Below are positions 8,690 through 35,799 of a DNA stretch of 64,000 nt, one piece after another (the stretch's first letter is position 1; every line of letters begins with the position of its first letter). The notes below the pieces were generated by a model, which was not told the DNA's origin, did no database searches, and worked only from the letters and a program-made list of their open reading frames with translations. Origin of the DNA: Woeseiaceae bacterium (GTDB lineage Bacteria > Pseudomonadota > Gammaproteobacteria > Steroidobacterales > Woeseiaceae); assembly GCA_028227395.1 (NCBI GenBank), contig JAOIZZ010000003.1, positions 63,077-127,076 on the forward strand. The letters run 5' to 3'. The translations under genes were made by a program, and so were the position numbers.

Positions 8690-8700
8690 AAGAAATATAT

Positions 8701-13683: not shown

Positions 13684-14424
13684 GTGATATTCGCATTTTT
13701 TGCTACGGCATTAGTTTATGCTTCTGTCGGTTTCGGGGGTGGCTCGACCTATAACGCCTTATTGATTTTGAGTCAGGTCGATTACAATTTGGTGCCAATT
13801 ATTGCCTTAATATGTAATGTGATCGTCGTGAGTGGTAATTGCTTGAGATACCATAAAAATGATTTGATACCTTGGTCATTTACTTTGCCGGTTATTTTGG
13901 TGTCTATTCCCTTTGCTTTTATGGGCGGTAATATCTTTATTGATGAAGCTCTCTTTATCAAAATCTTGGGTTGGACATTGTTGTTTTCTGGATTGATGAT
14001 GTTTTATAGGCATCAAGAGATTACTTCAGTATCGCCAAAATTAAATAGCTCTATAGGTAAATTTATCAGTATTGTCATCGCAGCTATCTTAGGTTTTCTT
14101 GCTGGTCTAGTGGGTATTGGTGGAGGCATTTTCTTCGCTCCTATGTTGCATATAACCCAGGTCCTCCCAACGAGAAAGATCGCTGCTTTTGCCAGTATTT
14201 TTATTCTGGTTAATTCTGTAGCTGGTCTTATTGGACAATATAATAAGTACGATAACCTTGATATATTGTGGCTTGACAATCAATATATTTGGCTCTTACT
14301 AGCAGTATTTATCGGAGGGCAATTGGGTTCATATATCAGTATCAAAAGAATTAAACCAATTATTTTACGTAGACTAACCGCGGGACTAGTGATTTATGTA
14401 GGATGTAGATTATTATTGATATAA
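13684..14424 (+). CDS. TauE/SafE family sulfite/organosulfonate exporter-like membrane protein
   Basis: 246 aa with a GTG start. The two-repeat membrane protein carries GFGGGSTYNALL and GIGGGIFFAPML motifs, characteristic of TauE/SafE (DUF81). Confidence 0.75.
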   Translation: MIFAFFATALVYASVGFGGGSTYNALLILSQVDYNLVPIIALICNVIVVSGNCLRYHKNDLIPWSFTLPVILVSIPFAFMGGNIFIDEALFIKILGWTLLFSGLMMFYRHQEITSVSPKLNSSIGKFISIVIAAILGFLAGLVGIGGGIFFAPMLHITQVLPTRKIAAFASIFILVNSVAGLIGQYNKYDNLDILWLDNQYIWLLLAVFIGGQLGSYISIKRIKPIILRRLTAGLVIYVGCRLLLI

Positions 14425-14459
14425 GATTAAATGAACGAATGTAATTATAAGAACAGTGC

Positions 14460-15071
14460 TTGAGGTATTCAGTGTCATTAGAAATAAGAAAAATCGTAGT
14501 ACATGATGAAGAAACTCTAATTGAAGGATTTTGTGAAGCAAAAAGTCCCCTCAGAATGTTCGCAGTAGCGGCGGTTATAAAAAACCCATGGTCTGGAAGA
14601 TACGTCGATGATTTAAAACCAGAAATCTTATCTATCGCTCCTCCTTTGGGTGAGGAATTAACTCAAAGAATTATAGAGTTAGCAGGCGGTGGAGAAAAAA
14701 TAGAGGCCTATGGTAAAGCAGCTGTTGTGGGGCTTGACGGAGAAATAGAACACGCCTCTGCCTTGATACATACTTTGCGATTCGGGAATTTTTACAGAGA
14801 GGCAGTAGGAGCGAAAAGTTATTTATCCTTCACGAATACTCGTGGCCCTGCCAATGCATCAATTATGGTTCCGTTGATGGATAAAAATGATGCCGGTCGT
14901 CGTTCTCACTATTTAACCATTCAATTTTCTATTGCAGATGCTCCAAGGGCGGATGAGATTGTAGTTGTTCTAGGGGGCTCAATTGGCGGTCGTCCTCATC
15001 ATCGTATTGGTGATCGCTATCAAGACTTAAAAGATCTCGGTCATGATGTGGAAAACCCTGCCTCGGTATAG
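14460..15071 (+). CDS. 'amino acid synthesis' family protein (AA_synth/DUF1185-type), function unknown
   Basis: 203 aa. EIRKIVV...AVAAVIKNPWSGRYVDDL...YGKAAVVGLDGEIEHASALIH...APRADEIVV...GGRPHHRIG matches the family consensus as I remember it. The start is uncertain (TTG 14460 or GTG 14472). Confidence 0.7.
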   Translation: MRYSVSLEIRKIVVHDEETLIEGFCEAKSPLRMFAVAAVIKNPWSGRYVDDLKPEILSIAPPLGEELTQRIIELAGGGEKIEAYGKAAVVGLDGEIEHASALIHTLRFGNFYREAVGAKSYLSFTNTRGPANASIMVPLMDKNDAGRRSHYLTIQFSIADAPRADEIVVVLGGSIGGRPHHRIGDRYQDLKDLGHDVENPASV

Positions 15072-15855
15072 AACTACCAATAACATTGCCTATTACAAAA
15101 CTGGTAATGGCCCGGCTATTCTTCTGATTCATGGCGTGGGTTTGAGGCTAGAAAGTTGGAATGCCCAAATAAGCATTCTCAGTAAAGAGCACACCGTTTA
15201 TGCCATCGACTTGCCAGGCCACGGAGAAAGTGATCAGTTAATACTAGAATCACCTAATATAAATCTTTATACACAACAAATAAAATTATTTGCCGACGAA
15301 ATAATTACAGGTGCTTTTATAGTGATGGGGCATTCTCTGGGTGCTCTGATCGCGATTCGTTTTGCTCATTTGCACAAAAAATATTGTCTTGGTGTTGTGG
15401 CTTTAAATTGCGTTTATCAACGCACGAAAAAAGCAATGAGTTTCGTCAAATCGCGAGCAACAAAACTTGCTCTAGAGGGCCCTAAAAATATTATTCCTCA
15501 AACAATTGATCGATGGTTTGGAGAAAGTCCATTGGGTTCTAATTTAGAAATAGCTAGTACTTGTAAGCAATGGTTAGAAGCAACAAATACAGACGGTTAT
15601 AGCCATGCTTATAATGCTTTTGCTGATGAAGATGGGGCGGCAGAAAAAATATTGATAATGAATAATTTGCCCATCGCATTTATAACAGGTACGTTAGACT
15701 CAAATTCAACGCCATTAATGAGTCAGGATATGGCGATGATCTCTCCTTTTGGAGTGGTCGAATTAATCCCAGAAGCGGGTCATATGGCACAAATGACTCA
15801 CTCAAAAGAGGTTGGTGAAGTACTGCGATTATTTGCACTGGGCATTAGAAATTAA
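15043..15855 (+). CDS. alpha/beta-fold hydrolase
   Basis: 270 aa. Oxyanion LLIHGVG, nucleophile elbow GHSLGA, C-terminal GHM histidine. It overlaps the upstream gene by 29 nt. Confidence 0.75.
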   Translation: MMWKTLPRYRTTNNIAYYKTGNGPAILLIHGVGLRLESWNAQISILSKEHTVYAIDLPGHGESDQLILESPNINLYTQQIKLFADEIITGAFIVMGHSLGALIAIRFAHLHKKYCLGVVALNCVYQRTKKAMSFVKSRATKLALEGPKNIIPQTIDRWFGESPLGSNLEIASTCKQWLEATNTDGYSHAYNAFADEDGAAEKILIMNNLPIAFITGTLDSNSTPLMSQDMAMISPFGVVELIPEAGHMAQMTHSKEVGEVLRLFALGIRN

Positions 15856-15872
15856 TATAACGAGATAGTTTG

Positions 15873-16910
15873 ATGAAATTTTCACTTTTTGCACATATGG
15901 AACGCACAAGTCAACAGCAATCATATGTTGATTCATACGATGAGTTCTTGGGGTTGTGTCAGCTGGCAGATCAAGGTGGAATGCATGCAATATGGACGGG
16001 CGAACATCATTGTATGGATTTTACTATTGCCCCTAATCCATTTATTAATATCGCTGACTTAGCCAGTAAATTGGATAATGTACGTTTAGGGACAGGCACT
16101 ATTATCGCGCCATTTTGGCACCCAATCAAGCTGGCTGGTGAATCGGCTATGACGGATATAATTACATCGGGAAGACTAGAGCTTGGTATTGCAAGAGGGG
16201 CTTATAGCTATGAATATGAACGTTTAATGCCAGGCATGGATGCTTGGGAGGCCGGTGCTCGCATGCGAGAAATGATACCGGCAATTCAAGGGCTTTGGAG
16301 CGGTAATTATAAGCACGATGGAGAGTATTATAAATTTCCAGAATCAACGTCAACTCCAAAACCAATGCAATCGTCAGGCCCACCTATTTGGATCGCTGCA
16401 AGAGATCCAAATAGTCATGAATTTGCTATAAAAAATAATTGTAATGTTCAGGTCACTCCACTCTGGCAAGGCTATAAGGAAGTAAGAGATTTGATAGCTC
16501 GCTTTAAAGATGCTCAGATTAAATGTCAAAATAAAGCCCAATCAAAAATAATGTTGTTGCAGCATACATTTGTAGCAGGTTCCGATGATGAGATAGATTA
16601 TGCAGCCAAAAAATTCAGTGAGTTTTATGGTCACTTTGGTGCGTGGTTTAAAAATGAAAGACCAGTAGATCAAGCCTTAATGAAAAAATTATCCGTTCCA
16701 GAATTAGAAGTGCTTGATATGTATTCACCTTCCGTTATGAAAGCTAATTTAGCCATCGGTAATTCAACGGATGTGATAAATTTGCTAAAAAAATATGAGG
16801 GGCTCGGCTATGATGAATTTGCTTATTGGATTGATTCAGGAATGAGTTTTGAGCATAAAAAAGCATCTTTAAATAGGTTTATTAACGAAGTTATGCCAGC
16901 TTTTCAATAA
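15873..16910 (+). CDS. LLM-class (luciferase-like) flavin-dependent monooxygenase/oxidoreductase
   Basis: About 345 aa. The N-terminus F.LF....R......Y....EL...AD..G...IWTGEHH and the motifs RLGTGTIIAPFWHP and GRLELGIARG are typical of the LLM family. ATG at 15873; the track's 15870 is a TTG. Confidence 0.8.
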   Translation: MKFSLFAHMERTSQQQSYVDSYDEFLGLCQLADQGGMHAIWTGEHHCMDFTIAPNPFINIADLASKLDNVRLGTGTIIAPFWHPIKLAGESAMTDIITSGRLELGIARGAYSYEYERLMPGMDAWEAGARMREMIPAIQGLWSGNYKHDGEYYKFPESTSTPKPMQSSGPPIWIAARDPNSHEFAIKNNCNVQVTPLWQGYKEVRDLIARFKDAQIKCQNKAQSKIMLLQHTFVAGSDDEIDYAAKKFSEFYGHFGAWFKNERPVDQALMKKLSVPELEVLDMYSPSVMKANLAIGNSTDVINLLKKYEGLGYDEFAYWIDSGMSFEHKKASLNRFINEVMPAFQ

Positions 16911-16927
16911 TCAATGGGTTATGACAT

Positions 16928-18415
16928 ATGACTATTCAGGAAAAAATACCTCATTACCCGCTTTTTATAAACGGCGAATTTGTTGAGGGAGAAAAAAAAG
17001 AAAGTATAGAGAGTATCAACCCTCATACTGGAAAGGCATGGGCAACGTTTGCTGTCGCTAATGATTTTGATGTGAATCGTGCAATATCCATAGCAAAACA
17101 ATCAATGGAAAAAGGCAAGTGGGCAGATATGCTGCCCTCAATGCGTGGTAAATTATTGTGTGCTCTGGCTGATTTAATCGAAAAGCACGCTTCTTTTCTG
17201 GGTGAAATAGAAACCAAGGATAGCGGTAAATTACTTGTCGAGACAGCCACTCAAACAAAATATGTTGCTGATTATTACCGTTATTATGCTGGCTTGGCAG
17301 ACAAAATAGAGGGCGCAACTTTACCGATTGATAAACCGGATATGCATGTTTTCACTACCTGTGAACCGATTGGCGTGGTCGCAGCGATAGTTCCTTGGAA
17401 TGCACAAATGTTCCTTACAGCAACAAAACTAGCTCCGGCACTGGCTGCTGGTTGCGCTATTATTATCAAAGCATCTGAAATTGCCCCATGTGTATTATTG
17501 CATTTTGGGAGACTGATTAAAGAGGCAGGATTTCCAGATGGTGTGGTCTCAATTATCACTGGAGATGCAAAAAGTTGTGCAATTCCATTAACGATACATC
17601 CCGATATTGATCGAATTGCATTTACCGGAGGACCGGAAACTGCTAAACAAATCATTACTAATTCAGCGGAAAATTTTGCTGTTACCACGCTTGAGTTGGG
17701 CGGTAAATCTCCAATAATAATTTTTGAAGATGCAGATATTGATAGCGCAGTTAATGGAATTATCGCTGGAAACTTTGGTGCATCAGGGCAATCTTGTGTT
17801 GCTGGATCAAGAGTGATTGTGCATGAATCAATAAAAAATGACGTTATAGCTAGGCTCATAAAAAAGGCCAACAACATCAAAGTGGGCAGCCCAACAGACC
17901 CAGAGACTCATGTGGGTCCGCTATGTACTGAAAAGCAAATTATATTAATTGAAAACACACTAAAGAAAGCCATTTCACAGAAGGCTAAAATACAATTTGG
18001 TGGAAAGCGAAAACAAAGTGAAGGATATTATTTTGAACCAACATTGGTGGATTGCCCTAATGAATCGATTGCGACACTTGAAGTTGAAATGTTTGGCCCA
18101 GTAATGTCAATGCTGTCTTTCAAGAGCGAAGAAGAGGCGATTGATTTAGCTAATAATAGTTTATACGGGCTTGGCTCAGGTGTATTTACTACTAATTTGG
18201 CTCGCGCACACCGTGTTTCCAAAAAGATTAAGGCAGGTATTTGTTGGATTAATACCTATCGAGCAATTTCACCTATTGCTCCGTTTGGTGGTTATAATCG
18301 ATCGGGTTATGCCAGAGAAGCTGGTATTCAGGCAATAAATGATTACGTGAGGACAAAAACAACTTGGATTAATATATCTGACGAGCCTATGGCTAATCCA
18401 TTTGTTATGCGTTAA
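16928..18415 (+). CDS. NAD(P)+-dependent aldehyde dehydrogenase
   Basis: 495 aa. ALDH signatures VPWNAQM, ELGGKSP (catalytic Glu) and GQSCVAGSR (catalytic Cys). Confidence 0.85.
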   Translation: MTIQEKIPHYPLFINGEFVEGEKKESIESINPHTGKAWATFAVANDFDVNRAISIAKQSMEKGKWADMLPSMRGKLLCALADLIEKHASFLGEIETKDSGKLLVETATQTKYVADYYRYYAGLADKIEGATLPIDKPDMHVFTTCEPIGVVAAIVPWNAQMFLTATKLAPALAAGCAIIIKASEIAPCVLLHFGRLIKEAGFPDGVVSIITGDAKSCAIPLTIHPDIDRIAFTGGPETAKQIITNSAENFAVTTLELGGKSPIIIFEDADIDSAVNGIIAGNFGASGQSCVAGSRVIVHESIKNDVIARLIKKANNIKVGSPTDPETHVGPLCTEKQIILIENTLKKAISQKAKIQFGGKRKQSEGYYFEPTLVDCPNESIATLEVEMFGPVMSMLSFKSEEEAIDLANNSLYGLGSGVFTTNLARAHRVSKKIKAGICWINTYRAISPIAPFGGYNRSGYAREAGIQAINDYVRTKTTWINISDEPMANPFVMR

Positions 18416-18437: not shown

Positions 18438-20072
18438 TTATTGAGTTGAGTCAGAGTCATCATTTAATAACGACTTAATCAGTGAAATAACCATAAGTGC
18501 CATGACCACTGAAAACGGCAGAGCCCCTATAATCATTATTGATCGCAATGCCTCCATTCCTCCAGCTGCTAACAATACGCCGATAAGAATCGAGAATAGG
18601 ATCCCCCAAATTACTATATGTTTAGCTTGTTTTTGACTTTGACTACCACCTGATGCCAGCGTAGTGATGATCAAAATACCTGAATCTGCTGAAGTGATTA
18701 AAAACGTTAATAGTAATGTCACAATGATTAAGGAGAGCGCGATGGATAATCCCGGTGAAAGTATTAAATTAATTGTTTCGAATAATTGCGCTGAAATATC
18801 TGCATTAACGATGGCACCCTGAGCGATATCACTCAGTTCAAGATCAATTGCTGTAGCACCGATGAAGGTGATCCATACCAAGCAGATCAAAGAAGGAATA
18901 ATCATTGCGCCGATGACATATTCGCGAATGGTCCTGCCTCGAGAGACGCGGGCTAAAAATAAACCGACAAAAGGAGCGAAAGCGATCCACCAGGCCCAAT
19001 AAAATATAGTCCAAGTACTTTGCCATCCTTGTAATGCAGCAGAGGGTTCAACGCCGTTATCTTTCCAAACGGTGGTAGACATCGATGGAAGGGCGATCAG
19101 ATAATCCCATATCGTGTAAAAAAAGGTTTCTAAGGCAAAAAAGGTAGCGCCAAATAAAATGAAAAAGGCAATTAAGAAAACCGATAAACTCATATTAATA
19201 TTTGACAACCACTTGATGCCTTTTTGTAAACCCGACATAGCAGAAACACAAGAAGCACTAACGATTAGAGTTAATCCGAATAACTGAGCTAGAAGAGTTG
19301 GCTTCCCGCTGCCATCTATCAACCACGTTGCACCACTTATATTGAAAAGGCCAGAGGCAAATTGTGATACACCATAACCAATCGTCACACTTAGACCAAC
19401 GATAGTGGCTAAGATAGCAACGATATCCACAACGTGTCCCGCGCCGCCCGACATAGCTCGGCCAAAAAGAGGTTGTAAGGCACTTCGAATTGTTAGAGGC
19501 AGGTTACGATTATAGGATAAATATCCCAGTGAAATACCAATCACACCATAACAAGCCCAAGGCGTGAGGCCATAGTGCAACATAGCCCATTTATAGGCAT
19601 TACGAACATTATTTTCATCCAGTCCAGTGGCTAATCCTTTGATCGTGTCAGGGTTAGTGGTGAAGTGAGAAAGAGGTTCAGCAGTAGAATAAGTAAGCAT
19701 CCCTATACCTATACCAGCACCAAACATCATCGAGATCCATGAGAAGGTACTAAATTCTGGTTTTTCATTAGGCTTACCCAGTTTTATATGAGCCGTGCGA
19801 GGCCAAAATCCAAGGCATAAACAAGCAATGGTATAAAATGCAGTGACATAGACATACCAGGTCCCAAAGGTTTCAGTCGACCAATTTTGTGCTTCCAATA
19901 ATATTTGGCCGGTAGTGGAAGGTGAGATAGCCACCCACATAATGAGCCCACCAATTAATAATTTTGGTATCACAGCAACAACACGATTAAAGCCTTTGTA
20001 GAATCCAGACTGATCTGTATTTATGAATACAGCTGGTTGCTGCTGACTTGAGGGTGAATTATCCAAGATCAT
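18438..20072 (-). CDS. BCCT family (betaine/carnitine/choline) transporter, copy 1
   Basis: 544 aa. BCCT signature WTIFYWAWWIAFAPFVGLFLARVSRGRTIREY. Confidence 0.85.
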   Translation of the reverse strand: MILDNSPSSQQQPAVFINTDQSGFYKGFNRVVAVIPKLLIGGLIMWVAISPSTTGQILLEAQNWSTETFGTWYVYVTAFYTIACLCLGFWPRTAHIKLGKPNEKPEFSTFSWISMMFGAGIGIGMLTYSTAEPLSHFTTNPDTIKGLATGLDENNVRNAYKWAMLHYGLTPWACYGVIGISLGYLSYNRNLPLTIRSALQPLFGRAMSGGAGHVVDIVAILATIVGLSVTIGYGVSQFASGLFNISGATWLIDGSGKPTLLAQLFGLTLIVSASCVSAMSGLQKGIKWLSNINMSLSVFLIAFFILFGATFFALETFFYTIWDYLIALPSMSTTVWKDNGVEPSAALQGWQSTWTIFYWAWWIAFAPFVGLFLARVSRGRTIREYVIGAMIIPSLICLVWITFIGATAIDLELSDIAQGAIVNADISAQLFETINLILSPGLSIALSLIIVTLLLTFLITSADSGILIITTLASGGSQSQKQAKHIVIWGILFSILIGVLLAAGGMEALRSIMIIGALPFSVVMALMVISLIKSLLNDDSDSTQ

Positions 20073-20105
20073 TGCTCCTAATAATTATTGTAAGTAACTT
20101 TTTAG

Positions 20106-20867
20106 TTATTCACCCGCACCAAGTCGGGATTGTTCACTTGCTTCGACTAATATCTGATCAGCTATATGCAAGAGCTTTGTATATTGAGTAGCCTCAATAT
20201 CAAGACCACTTGTTATTTTCTCATTAAAACGTTGTTTAAATTCACATGCTAGAATTTCTTGAGTCACTTTTCCTTTTTGTGAAACAGGTGGAATCTTTAA
20301 ATAAGACTCAATGGAATTAATACTATGTTTAGAGCATATCAAATCTAATTCAGACTTGTTATTGAGTATTGAATTATTTATTTTTATTGTTGAAAAATTT
20401 GGATACATTTCATTAGGATTGATACTCGCTGAATACAGTAAATTTTTTTCTGGTTCTGCCCACCATGCTTTCGCGTAATAACCATATTGACTGCATTTAA
20501 TGAGGTTAGGGAGAATAACAATAGGCTTAAGCGTATTGTTGATAATAGAATGACAGAAATTATCTTGATGGCATTTTGCTAATGTCATATCAGTAATAAT
20601 ACTGCCTGTATGAATGAGGCTATGTTTTTGATTATCAAAGACAAAACATTTTTTCTTATCCTTTAAAAGGATAGGTGTGAGATTTAATTTTTTAGGGTTC
20701 ACGTCAGTTATTCCTAGAAAATTAATAATTCCCAAAAGATCGTGAATTTCAAGCCATTGAATGATTGCTGCTGTATCTTCGAAATCATATTTATGACCAT
20801 AATATGATTCACAGGCACGATTTAGCAGGGCTTTGAATTCATTGATTGAAATTCTAATGAATTTCAT
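20106..20867 (-). CDS. hypothetical protein (253 aa), no motif recognised
   Basis: AAGGAA SD before the ATG at 20867. It overlaps the upstream gene by 14 nt and looks soluble. It is possibly related to the small DUF proteins found beside M19-like genes in betaine loci, but that is memory only. Confidence 0.6.
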   Translation of the reverse strand: MKFIRISINEFKALLNRACESYYGHKYDFEDTAAIIQWLEIHDLLGIINFLGITDVNPKKLNLTPILLKDKKKCFVFDNQKHSLIHTGSIITDMTLAKCHQDNFCHSIINNTLKPIVILPNLIKCSQYGYYAKAWWAEPEKNLLYSASINPNEMYPNFSTIKINNSILNNKSELDLICSKHSINSIESYLKIPPVSQKGKVTQEILACEFKQRFNEKITSGLDIEATQYTKLLHIADQILVEASEQSRLGAGE

Positions 20868-22581
20868 TTCCTTTGCTCATTTGATTATTTGGCATGATAG
20901 GGAAGATCCAATCATCTTTATATTTAGAGCCAATATCAGAGGTAATTGGCGCTCCTTGGAACATCGTATTACGAACCCATAGTCGAGACTTAGGATCAAA
21001 TTTTCCAACGCCAAAAAACGATAACTTACAGCGCAATAAATGTATTGGCAGCACATCTTTATCAAGTAAATTTGCTTGTATTTCACCGTATTTTGTTTTT
21101 GCCATTGTTTGTATACGCCGAATAATTTGACGATGCTCGGGGTATGCGAATACGAATTCAGCAACATTATTAATTTTTATTTCTGGAGGTAATTTTTTAA
21201 GAGTCGAATGACATTGTTCAACAGCCCGAGCAATACCGATCAGTATTTCTTTTTCAGCGCCCTGATCAATGTCTCTATCACCAAGTCTTGGCTCCATTTT
21301 TTCTTCAGATCGATACCAGAAAACAGCATTTGCACTTTTGGAATTGAAATCGTATTGCAACGCCCATTGATATTGCTTTTCTATAATTTGTCTGAGATCC
21401 AATAATTTCATTTCTGGAGACAGTGCGTATATTTCCTCGATGTCATGGTTTTCTTCTAGAGACAATACTTCTTCAGGGTGGATTTCGATTAAAATGGTAT
21501 TAATGAGTTCTTGCGCTTCAACATTATAGTGGTTGGTTACATAGTCTATAAATTGACCCCACTCTTGAAGAGTTTCTTTGTTCAGCCACTGTATGATCGA
21601 GCCTAGGGATTGACTGGCCTCTAGATTAATTTTATTTTGCGACTCATTATTGGTCGTTATTTCATTTAAATGAATGATGGCACGTTGTATCAATAAATTC
21701 AGAGCTTGCAGGGTATTTTTATTTGGTAGTGTATGGCTTATAACTTGTGCTAATGCTAATTCTCTCGTTTCGATCCAGCTATTGATTAATAAAGGATGCT
21801 TGATTAAAAAAGGCGCCATTCCAAGACCAGTAGCATTACCAATCCCAAAATACCTTTTTATGTCATCATCGAGACGAACTGCTAACTCAGGTGCACGCTT
21901 GAATGCAATATGATCGGCTTGATCTAGGCTGAACTGTCTGATCATAAAACAAGCAAACATTTCAGCTGAAAATGGCTCTTTGAAGTCTTGATAAGCTAAT
22001 TTTATTTTGCCCCAATCAGCCATTCCGAATTTACCGCTTCCATACACAGCCGTTGTTCGATACAAATAGCCAACCTCATTAATTTTTTTGATACAAGGCT
22101 GCATACCAGAACTGAGTTGATTGACCACATATTCAAAGTTACGGCTGCTTTTATTGGCTCTTGATAACACTAGACTTTCTGCTGACATTCTACCTTTTTC
22201 TTGGCGTGGCACATTTTCTTTCAGCGTCTCTAATTCATCTGGTTTAAAGGGTCCATGCCGAAGCGTAACAGTCATGTCCCAAGCCTCTGCAATCACTCTA
22301 TCTGTTCGAATAGTGCTATCTAGAAAATTGGCAAATACGACAAAATGATAACAAGTGCTTGGAGTGGTTATCTCATAAACAGTTTCACCATAACCCTCTT
22401 TGTCTAAATTAAACAAGACGCGATTAATGCTCCACTGCTCTTGCATAACTTTTCTCATTAACTTTCGCATAAAACTAAGTTTATAAGGATAAAAGCTTCC
22501 TAGTCGATTGAGATCCATGACTTTTGCTGGGCTTCTTAAGCTCGTTTTTGCTTGCTTAAGGCTGTGATTATGATTATTCAT
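20854..22581 (-). CDS. hypothetical protein (575 aa), no motif recognised
   Basis: A long uninterrupted ORF whose ATGA overlaps the M19-like gene stop. It has no TM segment, signal peptide, P-loop or other cofactor motif visible to me. Confidence 0.65.
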   Translation of the reverse strand: MNNHNHSLKQAKTSLRSPAKVMDLNRLGSFYPYKLSFMRKLMRKVMQEQWSINRVLFNLDKEGYGETVYEITTPSTCYHFVVFANFLDSTIRTDRVIAEAWDMTVTLRHGPFKPDELETLKENVPRQEKGRMSAESLVLSRANKSSRNFEYVVNQLSSGMQPCIKKINEVGYLYRTTAVYGSGKFGMADWGKIKLAYQDFKEPFSAEMFACFMIRQFSLDQADHIAFKRAPELAVRLDDDIKRYFGIGNATGLGMAPFLIKHPLLINSWIETRELALAQVISHTLPNKNTLQALNLLIQRAIIHLNEITTNNESQNKINLEASQSLGSIIQWLNKETLQEWGQFIDYVTNHYNVEAQELINTILIEIHPEEVLSLEENHDIEEIYALSPEMKLLDLRQIIEKQYQWALQYDFNSKSANAVFWYRSEEKMEPRLGDRDIDQGAEKEILIGIARAVEQCHSTLKKLPPEIKINNVAEFVFAYPEHRQIIRRIQTMAKTKYGEIQANLLDKDVLPIHLLRCKLSFFGVGKFDPKSRLWVRNTMFQGAPITSDIGSKYKDDWIFPIMPNNQMSKGNEIH

Positions 22582-23582
22582 GAGTCTTTATTAGGCATGG
22601 GCGGAAAGGACGACAAGAAGAAATTTAACCAATTTTTACCCATGATTTTTTCTATGTCATGATCACTGAAACTTACAGCTTGAAGGCCATCAATTAAGTT
22701 TTGGAATCCCAAATTATTTTTAAACCAGTCTGGTTGTTTGGGCCATGCAGGTTGTTCAGCATTACCTTCACCAAAGTCAGGTGTGAGTGCCCATCGGCCA
22801 CTGCGCATCCATTCTAAGATGGTATAGTCCCAGTTAAGACATAAATCTGAGCCAATACCAATGCGATCTATACCCATAAATTCAGCTGTGTCATAGATCA
22901 TATTGCAAAATTCTTCTAAGGTGCAATCAGAACCTTTAGCAAGGTGAAAAGGGTAAAGACTCACGCCTAGCATACCTTTAGATTCACTGAGATTCTTGAG
23001 AACATCATTTGATTTATTTCTTAATGCTGCGTGGAAAGTAGTTGGATTTGCATGCGTGATTGCAATTGGTCGAGTAGAAATTTCCATGGCTTGTAAGGTT
23101 GAATATTCAGCACTGTGCGACATATCGATGATCATACCGAGACGATTCATTTCTTTGATAGCCACTTTGCCAAACCGAGTGATGCCTGAATCTCTCTCTT
23201 CATAGCAACCAGTGGCAAGTAGGCTTTGATTGTTATAACTGAGTTGCATTATACGTGCGCCTAGATGATGCATTTCTTCAATAAGACGAACATCGTCTTC
23301 CACGGGAGAGCAATTTTGAAAGCCAAAGATAATACCAATTTTATTATTATCTTGAGCGACTTGAATGTCCTCAGCACTTCTGATTGGCATAATAAGATCA
23401 GCATGTTCTGTGAATTGTTTGTTCCAGTTATCAATATTTTGAATGACTTCTTTTCGATTTTCCCAATAGGCGATAGTGACATGAATCACATTAAGACCGC
23501 CGCGCTTCGCTTCTTTAAAAAGTTCTCGATTCCAATTTACATATTGGAGGCAATCAATAATTAATATGTCATTGGTATTCAT
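22578..23582 (-). CDS. peptidase M19 (renal dipeptidase) family homologue with a degenerate metal site
   Basis: 334 aa. It is collinear with DPEP1 motifs: IIDMSHS, AITHANP and GIGSD are conserved. IIDCLQY replaces VIDGHND and GFQN replaces GVEG. The start shares one nt with the ALDH stop (TAATG). Confidence 0.75.
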   Translation of the reverse strand: MNTNDILIIDCLQYVNWNRELFKEAKRGGLNVIHVTIAYWENRKEVIQNIDNWNKQFTEHADLIMPIRSAEDIQVAQDNNKIGIIFGFQNCSPVEDDVRLIEEMHHLGARIMQLSYNNQSLLATGCYEERDSGITRFGKVAIKEMNRLGMIIDMSHSAEYSTLQAMEISTRPIAITHANPTTFHAALRNKSNDVLKNLSESKGMLGVSLYPFHLAKGSDCTLEEFCNMIYDTAEFMGIDRIGIGSDLCLNWDYTILEWMRSGRWALTPDFGEGNAEQPAWPKQPDWFKNNLGFQNLIDGLQAVSFSDHDIEKIMGKNWLNFFLSSFPPMPNKDS

Positions 23583-25021
23583 TATGAAGAAATATAGGTC
23601 GTTTTAACGATAGTATAAAACTCTTTAGCATAGGATCCCTGCTCACGAGGCCCATAGCTTGAAGATTTTCTGCCACCGAACGGGACATGGTAATCGGTTC
23701 CAGCGGTTGGTAGGTTAACCATTACACAGCCCGATTCAGAATGTCGTTTAAAGTGATTGGCTTGTTTGAGTGATTGAGTAATAATCCCTGAAGTTAGACC
23801 AAAATCAGAGTCATTAGAGATGGCCAATGCGTCTTCATAACTCTTAGCTTTTATAACGCAAGCAATTGGTCCGAATACTTCCTCACGATTAATTTCCATC
23901 TGATTATTAGTTTCTGTAAATAAGGTAGGACGCATATAAAATCCATTATGACTCACCGTTATTGATTCATCACCAACTATCATTTTAGCGCCAGCTTTTT
24001 GAGCAGATGCTATGTATTTTTTATTTTGTTCAAATTGACGTGAATCAACCACAGGACCAATTTGTGTTGTCTTATCTAATGCATTTCCGACAACCAATCC
24101 TTGTGTTGCTGTGATCATTTTTTCAACGAACTCATCATGAATGCCCGCTTCAACAATTAGTCTAGAGGATGCAGTGCATTTTTGTCCGGTACCAAAAAAT
24201 GCGCCGTTAATGGCGCATTGGACGGCAATATCAATATCAGCATCATTCAGGATGACCAGCGCATTTTTGCTGCCCATCTCTAATTGAATTCGTGTCATAT
24301 TTTTAATGGCTTTTTGTGCTATCAAGTTGCCTGTCTTGACTGAGCCTGTAAATGAAATAGCATCAATGTTTTTTGATTCTGAGAGTGTCTCACCAGCAAT
24401 ACTTCCTGGCCCTTGAATACAGTTAAATACACCTTTCGGTAAACCACTTCGATGCAATATATCAGCAAATGCAATTGCACTGGCTGGCACAATTTCAGAA
24501 GGTTTAAGGACAACACAATTACCAAAAGCAAGGGCTGGCGCTATTTTCCAGGCAGCAACTGCTATGGGGAAGTTCCAAGGCGTAATCACACCAATTACAC
24601 CTAATGGCTCTCTTGTGACTTCAACATTTATATTAGGTCGAGTGGAAGTGGCCAGTTCACCCATCTGCCTGAGAACTTCTGCGCCGAAGTATTGAAAGAA
24701 TTGTCCTGATCGATATACCTCACCAATGCCTTCAGCTAATGGTTTACCTTCTTCTCGCGCTATTAATTCACCAATTTCGGTACTGCAATTAATGAGCTCA
24801 TCGCCAATATAATCGAGTATTTTTTTTCTCTCTTCCAGTGAGCTGGCTGACCATTCAGTAAAAGCATCTCTAGCACTTTTGATTGCCAATAAACTGTCTT
24901 CTTTAGAGGCTGCATGAAAAGTACCAATACAATCTGTCGTATCAGAAGGATTGATGCTAGTGAATGATTGGCCATCATTAAACCATTGACCATTAATTAA
25001 GTTACTTCCTAAATTTGACAT
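23582..25021 (-). CDS. NAD(P)+-dependent aldehyde dehydrogenase (semialdehyde dehydrogenase-like)
   Basis: 479 aa. ITPWNFP, LEMGSKNA (catalytic Glu) and GQKCTASSR (catalytic Cys). Confidence 0.85.
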   Translation of the reverse strand: MSNLGSNLINGQWFNDGQSFTSINPSDTTDCIGTFHAASKEDSLLAIKSARDAFTEWSASSLEERKKILDYIGDELINCSTEIGELIAREEGKPLAEGIGEVYRSGQFFQYFGAEVLRQMGELATSTRPNINVEVTREPLGVIGVITPWNFPIAVAAWKIAPALAFGNCVVLKPSEIVPASAIAFADILHRSGLPKGVFNCIQGPGSIAGETLSESKNIDAISFTGSVKTGNLIAQKAIKNMTRIQLEMGSKNALVILNDADIDIAVQCAINGAFFGTGQKCTASSRLIVEAGIHDEFVEKMITATQGLVVGNALDKTTQIGPVVDSRQFEQNKKYIASAQKAGAKMIVGDESITVSHNGFYMRPTLFTETNNQMEINREEVFGPIACVIKAKSYEDALAISNDSDFGLTSGIITQSLKQANHFKRHSESGCVMVNLPTAGTDYHVPFGGRKSSSYGPREQGSYAKEFYTIVKTTYISS

Positions 25022-25090: not shown

Positions 25091-27073
25091 TTAAACAAGA
25101 TCTCCCAATGCATTTTTAAGAGGCTGCAACCAGGGCTCATAGTTTTTCCATTGCTCTAATCCACTTTTATAGATGGGCTGTCTTACTTGTTCTGAACTAG
25201 GTGTTCTGACATTTCTTTTGGTTTGATGAAAGTTAATGCAATTTTCTTCAAAAGGAAGTTCACAATAATCAAGAATGCGATGCACTTCACGGTCTAAGTT
25301 AGCCACCACATTTTCATATTGAACACGAAGAATTTTCCCAGGAAGTATTTCATCCCAATGATCCATTACTTTTACGTAATCACGATAATAAGTTCCAATT
25401 TCCTCTAAACCATAAGAGAATTGTTGGCCACTGGCGAATAGCTGTTTGAAACCACTAAAGCAACAAGCCATTGGTTCTCGTCGTGCATCAATTATTTTTG
25501 CATTTGGAAGAATCAATCGTATTAAAGCAATATGTCGAAAATTATTGGGCATTTTATCAATAAAGTAAGGCGCTTTTTTTCGATGAATGCGAGTTTCTTC
25601 AATATAATTTTTACCGAAGGCCTTTAGTTTTTCAGGATCGAGTGTGCTTAAATTAGCAGGATAATCTGGCGTCTGATTGATGGTTTTTCTACCTGCGAGT
25701 TTATAGGCAAGTGCCGGAATGTTGGGTAATTCTAGAGTTCCTTCAACTTGAGAGTGTGAGGCTAAAATTTGCTCTAATAGGGTCGAGCCTGCTCTAGGTA
25801 ATCCGACTATAAAAATGGGGGCTGAATCTAGATGACCTTGATTATGTTTTGCATTAAATAGATCAACATTACAATGCGCTTGCTGTAAGGCAAGAATCTT
25901 AGTCATATTTTCTTTAGTATAGTTATGATTCGTTTTTTGTAAGGTATTACCTCTTTCATAATAATAGAATGATTTTTTGAATTGTTTTTGATCCTCATAA
26001 TGTTTGCCAAGGGCAAAACAAAGATGAATTCTGTTAGTTGCTACGGTGGCACTCATGGCCTCTTTTTCAGTCATTAAATTAACTTCTTGGTCGGTAAATT
26101 CATATGTCTTTAAATTAGCCATACTCCAATAAGCGTCACCAAAATCATTGCGTGCCGCATATGCTTTTCGATAAGCCTCAATTGCTTCGTCTTTTTTACC
26201 AATAGTTTTAAGGGCGTGCCCATGAACCAATCTTAGTTCTGGGTCATTTGGAGTAATTTTGTTTGCCTTGTCATAGATATTCAATGCTGTCTTGTAATCA
26301 CCTACTGCTATGGATTGATTAGCAAAAGCTATTTTATATTTAAGGTTGCTAGGTTCTCTCTTAATTAGGATTTTTGCTTGCTCAAGCGATTGCTTGTATT
26401 TTTGACGTCGATACAAAACAACCATATAGTCGTGCCTGGCAAAATTGTTTTCTGGTTCGAACTCAAGTGCTTTTTCGAGCAAAAATTCAGCGTCATCTAG
26501 AACGTCAGCAGCAACACCAAGGCTAGCTAATAAACGCATCCCCTCGACATTTTTTTTATTCTTTTGCAAAAATTGTCGACATAACTGTTCTGCATCATAG
26601 CTATGACCTTCAGAAATCATGTTACGAACGCTTAATAATTCATCGGGTAAGGCTTTTAATTTTTCATATTCGGTATTTGTGATTTTCGCGTTATCATGAT
26701 TGCCTTGTTTGGTATGGATTTTTGTTAAACCGGCCCAACTCGCTATTAAGGAGTTATTAAGCGAAACGGCATGTCGATAAGCATAAAGCGCCTGACTGGT
26801 GAATCCTGCAGCCATACAAACATGCCCTTCTTCTTGAAAAGCTCTGCCATATCCAGGGCGAATTTTTTTTAACTGTCTTAAGGTTGCAAGCGCCTCTTCT
26901 AGCCTATTAAGGTATCTTTGGCATACGGCTTTAATATAGAGGGCTTTTCCATTTTCAGGATATTGCTCGAGGATCACTTCTGTTTTTTTCTCAGCTTCAA
27001 CCAGACGACTGTTTACTAGAAGTGATCTTGCTTCTTCTAATGCAACTTCAATTTGTTCTTTATTATTCATCAT
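25091..27073 (-). CDS. TPR-repeat / sulfotransferase-domain protein
   Basis: 660 aa. The N-terminal roughly 400 aa are TPR-like. The C-terminal domain carries the PAPS 5'-phosphosulfate loop GLPRAGSTLLEQILASH and the later RxxxS region. Confidence 0.75.
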   Translation of the reverse strand: MMNNKEQIEVALEEARSLLVNSRLVEAEKKTEVILEQYPENGKALYIKAVCQRYLNRLEEALATLRQLKKIRPGYGRAFQEEGHVCMAAGFTSQALYAYRHAVSLNNSLIASWAGLTKIHTKQGNHDNAKITNTEYEKLKALPDELLSVRNMISEGHSYDAEQLCRQFLQKNKKNVEGMRLLASLGVAADVLDDAEFLLEKALEFEPENNFARHDYMVVLYRRQKYKQSLEQAKILIKREPSNLKYKIAFANQSIAVGDYKTALNIYDKANKITPNDPELRLVHGHALKTIGKKDEAIEAYRKAYAARNDFGDAYWSMANLKTYEFTDQEVNLMTEKEAMSATVATNRIHLCFALGKHYEDQKQFKKSFYYYERGNTLQKTNHNYTKENMTKILALQQAHCNVDLFNAKHNQGHLDSAPIFIVGLPRAGSTLLEQILASHSQVEGTLELPNIPALAYKLAGRKTINQTPDYPANLSTLDPEKLKAFGKNYIEETRIHRKKAPYFIDKMPNNFRHIALIRLILPNAKIIDARREPMACCFSGFKQLFASGQQFSYGLEEIGTYYRDYVKVMDHWDEILPGKILRVQYENVVANLDREVHRILDYCELPFEENCINFHQTKRNVRTPSSEQVRQPIYKSGLEQWKNYEPWLQPLKNALGDLV

Positions 27074-27106: not shown

Positions 27107-27130
27107 AAAGGCGAGCCTTAGCTCGCCTTT
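27107..27130 (-). terminator. rho-independent terminator after the TonB-dependent receptor gene
   Basis: AAAGGCGAGC-CTTA-GCTCGCCTTT forms a perfect 10-bp stem (GC-rich 7-bp core) with a 4-nt loop. On the minus strand a U6 run follows. It lies 37 nt after the receptor stop. Confidence 0.7.
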
Positions 27131-27166: not shown

Positions 27167-29929
27167 TTAGAAGTCGTATGAGACTCTAAAACCCATAGTA
27201 CGTGGGCGGTTAGTGGTAGCTCTTTCGAAGAAGTCTTGTCTGTTGATATGCAACTGTGCACGTTCGTCAGTTAAGTTCTTCACATAGAGCTCCATGCCCC
27301 AGTTATTATTTATATTTTTCAAGCCAACTGAAGTATCAAAAACTGTGTAAGCTTTTTGAAATACATTTGGCTCGTCAGTCGTATCAACTATTGAGTTAAG
27401 CGCTTTTCCTGCATGCTTCATACCCAATTGATAGTAGATACTTCCGTTTGCTGTTTCCCGCTCATATTTAGCTCTAATGGTATATTGTACTTCAGGAGTC
27501 AAAGGTAATTGACGACCTTCATCTTGAACTACGAGAGCAAACGCTGGATCAACACGAGTCAATTCAGTTTTATTATATGAACCAGCTGCATAGACAGTTA
27601 GATTGTCTGTGGCTGCCCATGTAAGATCGCCTTCCATTCCTTTGATTTCAGCATCACCACCATTATCAACAAGTGTAAATATTGAGATGTTTTGCGAATC
27701 GAAATGTGACACTTGAATGTCTTTCCAGTCGATCATGTAGATTGCACCATTGAAACGTAAACGACCATCAAACATAGTTGATTTCCAGCCGAACTCAGTA
27801 CTTTCCATCACATCTGATCTGAACACATAAGGTAAGCAGTATCCAGGGAAGCCAGTTGCTGCGTTTGCATCAATTGCTCCTTTAGTACCACAAGCTATCT
27901 CTGTAGCTAGGCCTGCATTTGCCTTATTATTTGCAGTTGCATCATAAACACCTAGTTTAGCCGCGCCTCGGTTGAAACCACCAGGACGATAACCCTCAGA
28001 CCATGTTGTGTACAATAAGAGATCATCACTTGGCGTATAAGACAACGTGAATTTCATCATTGTATCTTTAGTGCTAATAGGCCTAATTGCCGATGTAAAT
28101 TTAGTGGCATAATCTCGACCACCAGTGACATTAGGTCTAACGTCATTTGAAGGGTCAGCATCATCTACCAGTAATGGACGATTACCGTATCTCCATGCGC
28201 CGTATCCTGTGAAGTCATAATCTAAATCATATTTACGTGCACTCACAGCTACATTCAATTCATCGCTGAGTTGAAAATCAATCTCACCAAACACTGCTGT
28301 TTGCTTTTCTGTTCTAAGATTGTCATTTCTAAACTGCGTTGCACCATTTACAACACCTCTTGCGTTAGCAGATGCTGTACCAAATGTACCTGGCGATCTA
28401 TTGATATCGATTGGGGCAAAGCCTGCTTCGTATGGTGCCATGTAGTTAAAATTACCGATGTGTTTGATTTCGAAATCTTCGACATAAACACCACCTTGCA
28501 TGTTGACCATACCATCCCAATTTGTAGCGAATCGTATTTCATTAGTCATGCGCGTCATTTCATTTTGCAGTCCTACAGCATTTGCTGGGTTACCGCACTC
28601 GATCACGCCAGGATTACCGCTTAGCGTTGGATCATAACCATACCTTGCTACTGTATTAGCAGCTGCTACTGCTGCAGTGGTTATATTACCATCAGCATCT
28701 TTTACTTCTGCAACTGCAAGAGTTTCACCTACACCTGCACCAGTATAATAACCGGCACCGGTTAAGTATTCACAGATATAACCTGATATGGATCCACCGA
28801 TATTGGTATAGCCAGTGTAATCAAGTTGTGCATCGACTGAACGATCTAAGAAAGCACCTGTATAAACAATATCGATATCACCCATTGAACCATTTAGAGT
28901 CCAAGCAGTTGTGTTGAACGAATCATCTAATTTATCAGGTGTGAACCGCGATACTTTGAGGTCACCTTTGGCCATATCATAATCCCAAACACCTTCAGTT
29001 TTGAGAGACTGAGTAGTATTTTGGAGAAGTATATCCCAGTTTTCATTAAGTACCCATTTAAGGCCCATTCTAGCGCCTGCATAGTGTGCATCATTAAAAT
29101 CATCTTCAACGATTGAATCATTTCTTGCTGCTGTATAATTAACTGGAATTGTTGTACCTGCTGCGATTTCTGTTCCGTTAAAGAATCTGGTTGCTTTAGC
29201 GTACGTAACACCAGTTGCTTTAGGGAATGTTCCGTTAATCTTACTACTAGGCGTGAATGTTCCTGCTACATTATCAATATAACCACCTTGGTTATCATTA
29301 TAAAGAGCTACCCTGAATGCCATTTTACCTTCAATCAACGGAACATTAAGCATCATTTCAGCTGAGTTTGAATTCTCACCACCTGATGTAGATGCAAAAC
29401 CGCCATTAAAGCTTGCTTGGAATTCATCAATCACTGGTTTGTTAGTAATTAATCTAACTGTACCTGCCATTGAGCTGGCACCATATAAAGTACCTTGTGG
29501 CCCAGGAAGTACCTCAATACGTTCCATGTCAGTAACATAAACATCTAAGTTACGACCGCCTGATGTAACTGGTTGTTCATCTAAGTAGAGTGCAACGTTT
29601 GGAGCGGAACCTTGAGATTCTGCAACCGTGATATTAATCGCATCGACTGCGGCACCACGAATGTAGATTTCATTTTGTCCTGGTCCTCGTCCACCAGCAT
29701 TAACGCTTGGTAGATATTTCACATAGTCACTGAAGCTTTGAATATTTTCGTCTTCTAGTCTTTGTGCGTCCATTGCTTGCACGGCAAGTGGAATATCTTG
29801 CATGCTAGCTGACCGTTTTGTTGCAGTGACTGTAATTTCTTCTATTGCTTGAGCATGCACCGCTGAAGTAGCAGCACTTGCTGACATCGCAAGTAATACA
29901 GCTTGATGTACTTTGTTTACCTTAAGCAT
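27167..29929 (-). CDS. TonB-dependent outer-membrane receptor
   Basis: About 920 aa. Signal peptide MLKVNKVHQAVLLAMSASAATSAVHA, plug region (EEITVTATKR..., IEVLPGPQGTLYGASSMAGT) and a C-terminal beta-barrel ending in ...RVSYDF. ATG at 29929, preceded by GGGGGAA, is preferred over the TTG at 29950. Confidence 0.9.
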   Translation of the reverse strand: MLKVNKVHQAVLLAMSASAATSAVHAQAIEEITVTATKRSASMQDIPLAVQAMDAQRLEDENIQSFSDYVKYLPSVNAGGRGPGQNEIYIRGAAVDAINITVAESQGSAPNVALYLDEQPVTSGGRNLDVYVTDMERIEVLPGPQGTLYGASSMAGTVRLITNKPVIDEFQASFNGGFASTSGGENSNSAEMMLNVPLIEGKMAFRVALYNDNQGGYIDNVAGTFTPSSKINGTFPKATGVTYAKATRFFNGTEIAAGTTIPVNYTAARNDSIVEDDFNDAHYAGARMGLKWVLNENWDILLQNTTQSLKTEGVWDYDMAKGDLKVSRFTPDKLDDSFNTTAWTLNGSMGDIDIVYTGAFLDRSVDAQLDYTGYTNIGGSISGYICEYLTGAGYYTGAGVGETLAVAEVKDADGNITTAAVAAANTVARYGYDPTLSGNPGVIECGNPANAVGLQNEMTRMTNEIRFATNWDGMVNMQGGVYVEDFEIKHIGNFNYMAPYEAGFAPIDINRSPGTFGTASANARGVVNGATQFRNDNLRTEKQTAVFGEIDFQLSDELNVAVSARKYDLDYDFTGYGAWRYGNRPLLVDDADPSNDVRPNVTGGRDYATKFTSAIRPISTKDTMMKFTLSYTPSDDLLLYTTWSEGYRPGGFNRGAAKLGVYDATANNKANAGLATEIACGTKGAIDANAATGFPGYCLPYVFRSDVMESTEFGWKSTMFDGRLRFNGAIYMIDWKDIQVSHFDSQNISIFTLVDNGGDAEIKGMEGDLTWAATDNLTVYAAGSYNKTELTRVDPAFALVVQDEGRQLPLTPEVQYTIRAKYERETANGSIYYQLGMKHAGKALNSIVDTTDEPNVFQKAYTVFDTSVGLKNINNNWGMELYVKNLTDERAQLHINRQDFFERATTNRPRTMGFRVSYDF

Positions 29930-30173
29930 ATCTGGTTTCCCCCGAGGCAATTTATGTTGCCGTTTTTTTGCTTAGTTAATAAAACATTACTTGTTGTTTG
30001 TGTGACTTTTTCAAATTTTTTTTACAAAAAAATGAGTTAAATCGACACAGTAATGCATGAAATTTAAAGTAGTTGGATCAAAACTACAAGCAAATAATTA
30101 ACTTTTTACGCTTTTTTGTTATTTTTGTTGTTTTAATACAACAATAGAAAAAACTCAATATATTTGGTTTTGA

Positions 30174-31853: not shown

Positions 31854-32077
31854 AATTTTATTACCTAGAATTACATCTTTATGTATTATTTTGATTATGG
31901 AAAAGCAGTCTAATCTGGAAACTGTTTTTTCACAAATCGTAATCCATATCATGAGGAGTTAGTTAGCTGAAAATTTTTGTCTTTTATTACGGTAATATTT
32001 ATGCAAATAATCGCTTTTTCAAGGCATTCTATGGATTTTTAATTTAATAATAATTTTATTAAAGTTTGATGGGTATA

Positions 32078-33751: not shown

Positions 33752-33808
33752 GTTAATCAAATAGCGAGTTCGTGAATTTTATATATTAGGTAGCAGAGAG
33801 ATTATTTT

Positions 33809-34522: not shown

Positions 34523-34556
34523 ATACCAGCATCGTATTTAAAATTACTAGAATGGC

Positions 34557-34859: not shown

Positions 34860-34889
34860 GCGTCTCATTACCTAGGATGGGTCAGTAAA

Positions 34890-35756: not shown

Positions 35757-35799
35757 AAATAATCTAATAATAAAATATAAATAATTGGTTGGAGAAAAA

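Follow-up and report, generated by a model that had tools for sequence, protein, structure and literature searches.

A stretch of 64,000 nucleotides (nt) from contig JAOIZZ010000003.1 of a Woeseiaceae bacterium (assembly GCA_028227395.1), hereafter the window, carries on its reverse strand a five-gene operon at positions 18438-25021. Gene content, gene sizes, gene order, the taxa in which it occurs and its linkage to sox-like genes identify this locus, with a probability of about 0.88, as the Woeseiaceae version of the homarine (N-methylpicolinate) operon homABCD(+homT). The single genes were matched by the published descriptions, according to which the aldehyde dehydrogenase (ALDH) is almost certainly HomD, the M19-like protein HomC, orf575 HomB, orf253 HomA and the BCCT transporter HomT-like. 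A preliminary description of the same DNA had presented the operon as an undescribed system. This no longer holds: the homarine operon homABCD, with which the four-gene set agrees, appeared in print in March 2026 (Ferrer-Gonzalez et al., Nat Microbiol; PMC13236597). The class of function proposed at that time, the breakdown of an imported betaine-type solute, was nevertheless right in kind, and homarine was on the list of possible substrates. The locus is very probably a slightly variant copy of a known operon; what remains of interest is how HomAB works chemically and what the putative outer-membrane module does.

The operon is transcribed in the order ALDH (23582-25021, 479 amino acids (aa)), M19-like (22578-23582, 334 aa), orf575 (20854-22581, 575 aa, 1728 nt), orf253 (20106-20867, 253 aa, 762 nt) and BCCT (18438-20072, 544 aa), thus homD-homC-homB-homA followed by the importer. 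The five open reading frames (ORFs) and the four junctions, as read from the sequence, are exactly those of the preliminary description. The stop codon of ALDH and the start codon of M19 have one nucleotide in common (TAATG at 23582), the M19 stop overlaps the orf575 start as ATGA (22578-22581), the overlap of orf575 with orf253 spans 14 nt (20854-20867), and BCCT follows orf253 after a gap of 33 nt, with TAGGAG upstream of its start. At the orf575/orf253 junction the 14-nt overlap stands, but not the good Shine-Dalgarno sequence formerly assigned to it: AAGGAA lies 1 nt from the ATG, far tighter than the canonical spacing, so that coupling by the overlap is the better explanation. The arrangement is more than chance: other lineages likewise show the overlap between the 575-aa and the ~250-aa genes and have ALDH next to M19.

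The homarine operon was described as homABCDER(+homT) (Ferrer-Gonzalez et al., 2026). The homarine-induced cluster of Cobetia sp. OBi1 has seven genes, homE, homA, homB, homT, homC, homD and homR, comprising five catabolic genes, a regulator and a transporter. Therein homT bears the label 'glycine betaine transporter' and homC that of a 'peptidase'; homD is ALDH-like, and homR is counted in the operon, outside the catabolic core. In R. pomeroyi DSS-3 the cluster SPO3188-3192 corresponds to homA, B, C, D and R. Mutants in homB, homC, homD and homR lost growth on homarine, and a homT mutant grew more slowly. According to the same study, homA measures ~700 nt and homB ~1,700 nt, and both genes are adjacent in 97.7% of 11,755 genomes. 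The position of homE is variable, beside homA or homD at either end of the operon, and about one-third of the genomes are without it. The hidden Markov model (HMM) of homB was specific, with matches down to 1e-240, that of homA gave weak matches, and those of homC and homD lacked specificity (Ferrer-Gonzalez et al., 2026). Independent papers annotate SPO3188 as 'hypothetical protein' and SPO3186 as the BCCT DmdT.

The locus in the window agrees with this picture on several counts. Its overlapping pair of 762 and 1728 nt fits the published sizes of homA and homB, and the translationally coupled M19 (PF01244) and ALDH (PF00171) genes directly upstream fit homC and homD. Across classes, orf575 retains 50-57% identity against 20-32% for the ~250-aa protein, which fits a specific homB HMM and a weak homA HMM. 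The gene names could be assigned through the megaplasmid of Ruegeria sp. TM1040, where genes for a LysR regulator, an ALDH, a membrane dipeptidase, a BCCT transporter, a hypothetical protein of 567 aa, a DUF3726 protein and an Ldh-family oxidoreductase follow each other next to sox-like BDAG genes. This order, R-D-C-T-B-A-E, is the mirror of E-A-B-T-C-D-R in Cobetia; hence homB is the 575 family, homA the DUF3726 family and homE, by inference, the Ldh_2 gene. In agreement with the variable position of homE, the Ldh_2 gene of related loci adjoins either homD or homA. The taxa correspond as well: hom genes or transcripts were reported in SAR92, Porticoccaceae, Oceanospirillaceae, Vibrionales and Rhodobacterales (Ferrer-Gonzalez et al., 2026), all of which carry the 575 family in a hom-like context. 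With the operons of Cobetia OBi1 and R. pomeroyi the window shares the pair of homA and homB size, the M19 'peptidase', the ALDH, a betaine-type transporter and linkage to sox-like genes (here candidate mgd genes), in marine gamma- and alphaproteobacterial hosts that include SAR92 and Porticoccaceae. It differs from them by its Woeseiaceae host, a family not named in the text of PMC13236597, by the lack of homR and homE, by a BCCT of another subfamily after homA, and by a TonB receptor and a TPR-sulfotransferase upstream.

In the published systems a linked sox-like cluster was co-induced with the operon and reinterpreted as N-methylglutamate dehydrogenase, mgd (Ferrer-Gonzalez et al., 2026). 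A sox-like heterotetramer set with the Pfam domains DAO, SO_alpha_A3 and GCV_T lies at 4880-9951 on the reverse strand of the window (beta 8701-9951, delta 8405-8689, alpha 5451-8408, gamma 4880-5512). With the hom-adjacent set of TM1040 it shares 73% identity in the beta and 56% in the alpha subunit, compared with 56% and 44% for a second set in the window (41025-46171), and a set of the 4880-9951 type adjoins the operon in Hellea loci. The set at 4880-9951 is consequently a candidate N-methylglutamate dehydrogenase, mgdABCD. The second set belongs to a region on the forward strand (38585-47192), in which it follows a DMGDH gene and precedes a GbdR-like AraC/DJ-1 regulator; in view of these neighbours it is probably a true sarcosine oxidase.

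In order to follow the operon across genomes, the ORFs of the best 80 related genome loci were clustered all-against-all; the 575 gene family itself is carried by at least 581 species genomes. The 575 family was present in 78 of the 80 loci, the ALDH and the 253-like families in 76 each and M19 in 75. BCCT was found in 50 loci, the Ldh_2 oxidoreductase in 44, the LysR regulator in 42, the TPR-sulfotransferase in 41 and the TonB-dependent receptor in 36. The four-gene set is therefore conserved in about 75-78 of the 80 loci, but BCCT is not a fixed component. A pair of homA and homB type is adjacent in every complete related locus, and the 575/253 overlap is retained wherever the junction is readable. 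The closest locus, in a Woeseiaceae metagenome-assembled genome (MAG), has an identical gene order and 92% identity over orf575.

Gene order proved to be conserved across genomes in three arrangements. Woeseiaceae and Hellea-like bacteria display the order TonB receptor, TPR-sulfotransferase, (Ldh_2), ALDH, M19, 575, 253, and Porticoccaceae/SAR92 the same order but with BCCT inserted between M19 and 575. In Pseudomonas and Oceanospirillaceae, RidA, BCCT, M19 and ALDH are divergent from LysR, 575, 253 and TauE. This divergent version, seen in loci L047, L068-L070, L073-L078, L080, L084 and L086-L090, is hosted by Pseudomonas, Amphritea, Marinobacterium, Pontibacterium and Endozoicomonas and is without the Ldh_2 gene; there, hydrolysis of the imine by RidA may take the place of the HomE step. 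Five Porticoccaceae loci (L035, L036, L060, L061, L067) carry a second module downstream of homA on the opposite strand, made of LysR, IclR, a second ALDH, an iron-type alcohol dehydrogenase and BCCT, then a duplicated family-III CoA-transferase (878 aa). This module resembles a carnitine- or choline-type pathway.

The breadth of the family raises the question of whether the operon of the window could be a paralogous HomAB-type system acting on another N-heterocyclic or pyridinium betaine, such as trigonelline, an N-methylated pipecolate or proline derivative, or picolinate. Homologues of orf575 range from 92% down to ~29% identity, with 1285 representatives (50%-identity) at E ≤ 0.001. The family is present on 168 plasmid or chromid records, among them those of Phaeobacter, Ruegeria, Sinorhizobium and Vibrio, and plasmids of soil rhizobia carry it as well (Sinorhizobium 64, Aminobacter 8, Mesorhizobium 3). 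The accessory genes vary by lineage (Ldh_2, RidA, TauE, TonB receptor/sulfotransferase), and homarine use was demonstrated only for Cobetia, R. pomeroyi and nine isolates (Ferrer-Gonzalez et al., 2026). The window proteins, on the other hand, fall inside the marine clade formed with SAR92, Porticoccaceae and Hellea, with the same core order, and for this clade homarine-induced homC and homD transcripts (Porticoccaceae) as well as in situ homB expression were reported (Ferrer-Gonzalez et al., 2026). Together with the sox-like set of hom-adjacent type in the window, this makes a substrate other than homarine unlikely.

HomA (orf253), which the preliminary description had considered an orphan, is not one. 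Although the match of orf253 itself to DUF3726 (PF12525) remains below threshold in Pfam (18 bits, cut-off 22.1), all of the 34 diverse family members that were scanned (E ≤ 1) match DUF3726, the best at 5e-31, and 21 of them also match Ldh_2, the best at 5e-11. The TM1040 and Shinella orthologues are likewise named DUF3726 by PGAP. Comparison of the HomA profile with the HomE/Ldh_2 profile (hhalign) gave P = 1.7e-5 over 158 collinear columns, whereas 12 control families stayed at P ≥ 0.11. A Foldseek search of the HomA model against the PDB returned Ldh_2 enzymes for all of the top 27 matches, with E-values from 9e-8 to 1.5e-3 and AllD, YiaK and DpkA among them; a PDB sequence search with HomA produced noise alone. 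The HomA family thus consists of truncated, diverged Ldh_2-fold (DUF3726) proteins.

Ldh_2 comprises the type-2 malate/lactate dehydrogenases, and its member DpkA is an NAD(P)H-dependent piperideine-2-carboxylate reductase, also known as N-methyl-amino-acid dehydrogenase. Substrates of the DpkA type are six-membered cyclic imine 2-carboxylates, close analogues of reduced homarine, and N-methyl amino acids are formed. HomE of related loci is a full-length member of this family. HomA shares its fold by profile, Pfam and Foldseek, the likeness spanning ~160-250 residues, but with 200-250 aa (253 in orf253) against ~340 aa it reaches about two-thirds of the length of the enzymes. It differs also by an unaligned SHG region and by an SRxGAG tail at the C-terminus, which is invariant in the HomA family. 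Since only 5 of 47 fused long forms described below retain this tail, it was dropped as a basis for argument. A search of the literature on DUF3726, 2I5G and cog2355 brought nothing useful.

For HomB (orf575), the designation as a true orphan was confirmed by all comparisons: Pfam, NCBIfam and PDB sequences gave no match, and the best PDB hit of the HomB model in Foldseek had E = 0.4 with TM ≤ 0.12. The AlphaFold2 (AF2) model itself is confident (pLDDT 86.6, pTM 0.88). At least 8000 homologous proteins were scored, all of them named 'hypothetical', with identities of 53-57% between classes. The 133 near-invariant positions of the family include 17 Arg, 8 Trp and two His (H262, H304) and no Cys, a composition that argues against an Fe-S or Cys-ligated centre.

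Long forms of 740-960 aa account for 47 of the 150 best HomB representatives. Their C-terminal extension matches the HomA HMM in 30 of the 47, four of them at 1e-29 to 1e-40, and Pfam places DUF3726 after the HomB part. Examples are P0257, P0270, P0273 and P0277, together with ~40 other representatives; the longest fusions (~900-960 aa) could accommodate an Ldh_2-like part of greater and perhaps full length. Such natural HomB-HomA fusions, of the Rosetta-stone type and found in many distant relatives, support the HomA-HomB heterodimer predicted by AlphaFold (Ferrer-Gonzalez et al., 2026). Along with the conserved stop/start overlap they suggest that HomA and HomB act as one enzyme.

HomC, the M19-like protein, matches Peptidase_M19 (PF01244) with 242.8 bits (cut-off 26, E = 6.5e-72) from profile position 36 onwards. 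Its active site was compared with that of human DPEP1, in the numbering of a reference sequence that was checked for self-consistency. In the 75 members of the HomC family (74-75 residues per column), H20, D22, E125 and H152 of DPEP1 are invariantly replaced by L, Y, Q and Y, and H198, H219 and D288 are kept in all members. Four of seven catalytic or metal residues are thus replaced, and only two of the five ligands of the binuclear-zinc set (H20, D22, E125, H198, H219) remain. The degenerate state formerly ascribed to the M19 protein is real and concerns the binuclear site. The invariance of the replacements indicates a remodelled rather than a decayed protein, and HomC is unlikely to work as a binuclear-zinc dipeptidase. 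With the M19 peptidases DPEP1, GliJ and Sco3058 it has in common the amidohydrolase TIM-barrel fold and the three retained residues; it differs by the replaced alpha-metal ligands (H20/D22), bridging E125 and H152, and by being cytoplasmic and operon-encoded.

The best PDB sequence match of HomC was the 'amidohydrolase' 2i5g (4.8e-59), which likewise has L at the position of H20, Q at that of E125 and Y at that of H152. The entry 2i5g is presumably a P. aeruginosa protein, possibly PA5396, and PA5397 is presumably a DUF3726 protein. The preliminary description had placed these two genes beside dimethylglycine genes, which was correct: PA5396-PA5397 are co-operonic with dgcAB in the dgc operon of P. 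aeruginosa (PMC13492115). As in the window, an M19-like amidohydrolase and a small adjacent protein are encoded there in a methylamine-catabolic operon. This relation, as well as the abundance of DMGDH, sox and MttB genes in the window and in related loci, would fit a role of the cluster in glycine betaine catabolism, as an accessory of dimethylglycine demethylation. The dgc operon, however, has dgcAB and is without HomB and ALDH, whereas dgcAB is missing here and HomB and ALDH accompany the pair in the window and in ~75 of the 80 loci. As strains with the homologous genes knocked out no longer grow on homarine (Ferrer-Gonzalez et al., 2026), the glycine betaine reading is very improbable.

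None of orf253, orf575 and the M19-like protein was named by NCBIfam. For HomD (PF00171, E = 3e-155) the nearest NCBIfam models, neither of which reached its cut-off, were 2,5-dioxovalerate dehydrogenase and alpha-ketoglutarate semialdehyde dehydrogenase, and its translation displays the catalytic-type motifs QLEMGSKN and GQKCTA.

In the published work the pyridine ring of homarine is opened with retention of the N-methyl group, one carbon is lost, and N-methylglutamate is made and converted to glutamate via the sox-like dehydrogenase; C7H9NO5, C6H9NO4 and C6H9NO3 were detected as labelled intermediates (Ferrer-Gonzalez et al., 2026). From these elements a route can be proposed. HomA and HomB, as one enzyme, would add two electrons to homarine, leading to its dearomatisation, and O2 would then cleave the C5=C6 enamine to give N-formyl-N-methyl-2,3-dehydroglutamate 5-semialdehyde (C7H9NO4). 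HomD would oxidise the aldehyde to the acid C7H9NO5. HomC, with its alpha-metal site lost, would remove the N-formyl group as formate and thereby release N-methyl-iminoglutarate or its enamine (C6H9NO4); in a variant of this step, deformylation of the semialdehyde would yield C6H9NO3. Reduction to N-methyl-L-glutamate would follow, catalysed by HomE, a full-length Ldh_2 protein, where it is present. Finally, formate would be passed to the neighbouring formate-tetrahydrofolate (THF) ligase, and N-methylglutamate would be demethylated by the sox-like set at 4880-9951.

The three labelled formulas fit this route as the N-formyl acid, the deformylated enamine or imine, and the deformylated semialdehyde. 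Support is also given by the nearest models of HomD, which act on C5 oxo-acid semialdehydes, and by the Ldh_2 fold common to HomA and HomE. The imine deaminase RidA in the Pseudomonas and Oceanospirillaceae clusters and the formate-THF ligase next door provide further context. The gene of the latter (30174-31952, reverse strand; PF01268, 7e-265) adjoins that of the TonB receptor and is also located next to the hom cluster in loci L011, L014, L039 and L082, a proximity compatible with a release of formate during ring opening. Ectoine-, carnitine- and opine-like schemes, drawn up from the hydrolase, the ALDH and Ldh_2, were rejected, as none of them accounts for the HomA/HomB pair.

In its logic the proposed route resembles the tgn pathway for trigonelline (N-methylnicotinate) of Acinetobacter baylyi ADP1, said to have been described by Perchat et al. 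in 2018 and reportedly initiated by a flavin reductase and an oxygenase of the TgnAB type. There too, a pyridinium betaine is opened with the N-methyl group kept, followed by an aldehyde dehydrogenase and amide hydrolysis. HomA and HomB differ in that no flavin-reductase, Rieske or monooxygenase domain was detected in them by Pfam, and the end product is N-methylglutamate.

Several points weigh against the identification of the operon and the chemistry derived from it. The match to SPO3188-3191 and ACFLL8_11495-11515 was made by description and not by sequence alignment, and no orthologue from Cobetia or R. pomeroyi appeared among the 120 homologues listed for a protein of the Pseudomonadales MAG L031 used as query. 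This query stems from a locus with Cobetia-like gene order, and the 120 listed matches were from Porticoccaceae and Pseudomonadales relatives alone. Searches of the window by tblastn, using three LysR sequences from related loci, detected no hom-type LysR; a homE/Ldh_2 gene was not detected in the window either. A locus without homE is still compatible with membership, given that about one-third of the genomes with the operon are without it. The BCCT of the window shares no more than 32% identity with the transporter inside the TM1040 cluster and belongs to another subfamily. On the side of the chemistry, the AF2 model of HomA has a low confidence (pLDDT 61.7), and the catalytic 'SHG' region of Ldh_2 (PF02615) falls in an alignment gap, for which reason HomA may be non-catalytic; the electron donor would then be unaccounted for. 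HomA is said to have FAD-binding motifs (Ferrer-Gonzalez et al., 2026); no FAD-type domain was found in it by Pfam, which reported DUF3726 and Ldh_2 alone. The mechanism as such was inferred from molecular formulas alone.

Upstream of homD the window encodes a protein of 660 aa with TPR repeats and a sulfotransferase domain (25091-27073, reverse strand; Sulfotransfer_3, 3.7e-51), preceded by a TonB-dependent receptor (27167-29950, reverse strand; Plug domain, 6.7e-17). The two genes are linked to the hom core in 6 of 7 Woeseiaceae loci, in 12 of 17 of the Hellea-like Alphaproteobacteria and in 19 of 32 of Porticoccaceae/SAR92, and in none of the Pseudomonas or Oceanospirillaceae loci of the 80-locus set. 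Neither of them is mentioned in the text of PMC13236597. The TPR-sulfotransferase has no signal-peptide-like N-terminus and appears to be cytoplasmic. An extra small sulfotransferase (PF03567) was observed in some Porticoccaceae loci.

The gap of 69 nt between homD and the TPR-sulfotransferase gene holds a promoter-like site. A terminator-like hairpin (27107-27130, reverse strand) with a 10-bp stem, six GC pairs and a subsequent T-run follows the TonB receptor gene and separates it from that of the TPR-sulfotransferase; it was recognised by consensus match alone. Scanning the window gave about as many hits as shuffled sequence (promoters 42 versus 47.6, terminators 12 versus 10.2), and of all matches only this strong hairpin is worth mentioning.

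Sulfotransferase domains upstream of the core could point to the catabolism of a sulfonated or sulfated amine (N-methyltaurine-type, sulfobetaine), with HomD as a sulfoacetaldehyde-type ALDH and TauE as exporter. A TauE/SafE permease indeed flanks the cluster in 13 of 17 Pseudomonas and Oceanospirillaceae loci and is encoded at a distance of 4 kb in the window, where a luciferase-like monooxygenase gene is also found nearby. TauE is, however, absent from most lineages, the one in the window is of another, unrelated subfamily (no tblastn match), and no desulfonating enzyme (Xsc, SsuD-type) is found inside the core, the genes of which are explained by the homarine data. These sulfur-related genes being lineage-specific, the sulfonate reading was dropped and is given hardly any likelihood.

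Under the homarine assignment, a more far-reaching proposal may be put forward tentatively, and it is more doubtful than not. HomB would be the first of a structurally new family of pyridinium-ring-opening proteins that works without Rieske, flavin or Fe-S centre and depends on an obligate, sometimes fused, degenerate Ldh_2 partner for binding or reduction of the N-heterocycle. In Woeseiaceae, Hellea-like bacteria and Porticoccaceae, uptake or processing of homarine or a conjugate would be the task of an undescribed outer-membrane module made up of the TonB receptor and the TPR-sulfotransferase.

The BCCT protein matches PF02028 over profile positions 1-484 of 485 (E = 1e-145) and reached no equivalog cut-off of NCBIfam. 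Located in the position of homT, it is a putative homarine or betaine importer. Its position varies between loci, and this, with its occurrence and its distance to the TM1040 protein given above, speaks against a fixed member of the unit as first proposed.

The BCCT stop is separated by 22 nt from the end of a convergent five-gene operon on the forward strand (13684-18415). This operon encodes the TauE/SafE permease, an AA_synth protein (PF06684), an alpha/beta-hydrolase, the luciferase-like monooxygenase and a betaine-aldehyde-dehydrogenase-like ALDH, and is syntenic with the hom cluster in the Woeseiaceae contigs L001, L009-L012 and L014. Further along the same strand (32210-38409), a non-pyrrolysine MttB-family methyltransferase, a corrinoid protein, an MTHFR-like protein, a pterin-binding methyltransferase, a gamma-butyrobetaine-hydroxylase-like TauD dioxygenase and an HD-domain protein are encoded. 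This cluster looks like a corrinoid-dependent module for quaternary-amine demethylation. At the start of the window, also on the forward strand, genes for an Amidohydro_3 hydrolase (565 aa, 1557-3254) and a pyridoxal-phosphate-dependent (PALP) enzyme (359-1564) lie beside a gene of the FAA-hydrolase family.

Among the small nitrogen metabolites of marine plankton, homarine ranks as one of the most abundant, and genes for its degradation were identified only in 2026. New here are the Ldh_2 fold of HomA, the lack of any solved-structure relative of HomB, the HomB-HomA fusions, the residue replacements in HomC and the linkage to the TonB receptor and TPR-sulfotransferase. The fold of HomA, the novelty of HomB, the fusions and the departure of HomC from a classical M19 peptidase make the ring-opening step testable in vitro. 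The assignment explains an operon which is otherwise annotated as 'hypothetical / dipeptidase / ALDH', and it would extend homarine use to the Woeseiaceae, a major group of Gammaproteobacteria in sediment and water column.

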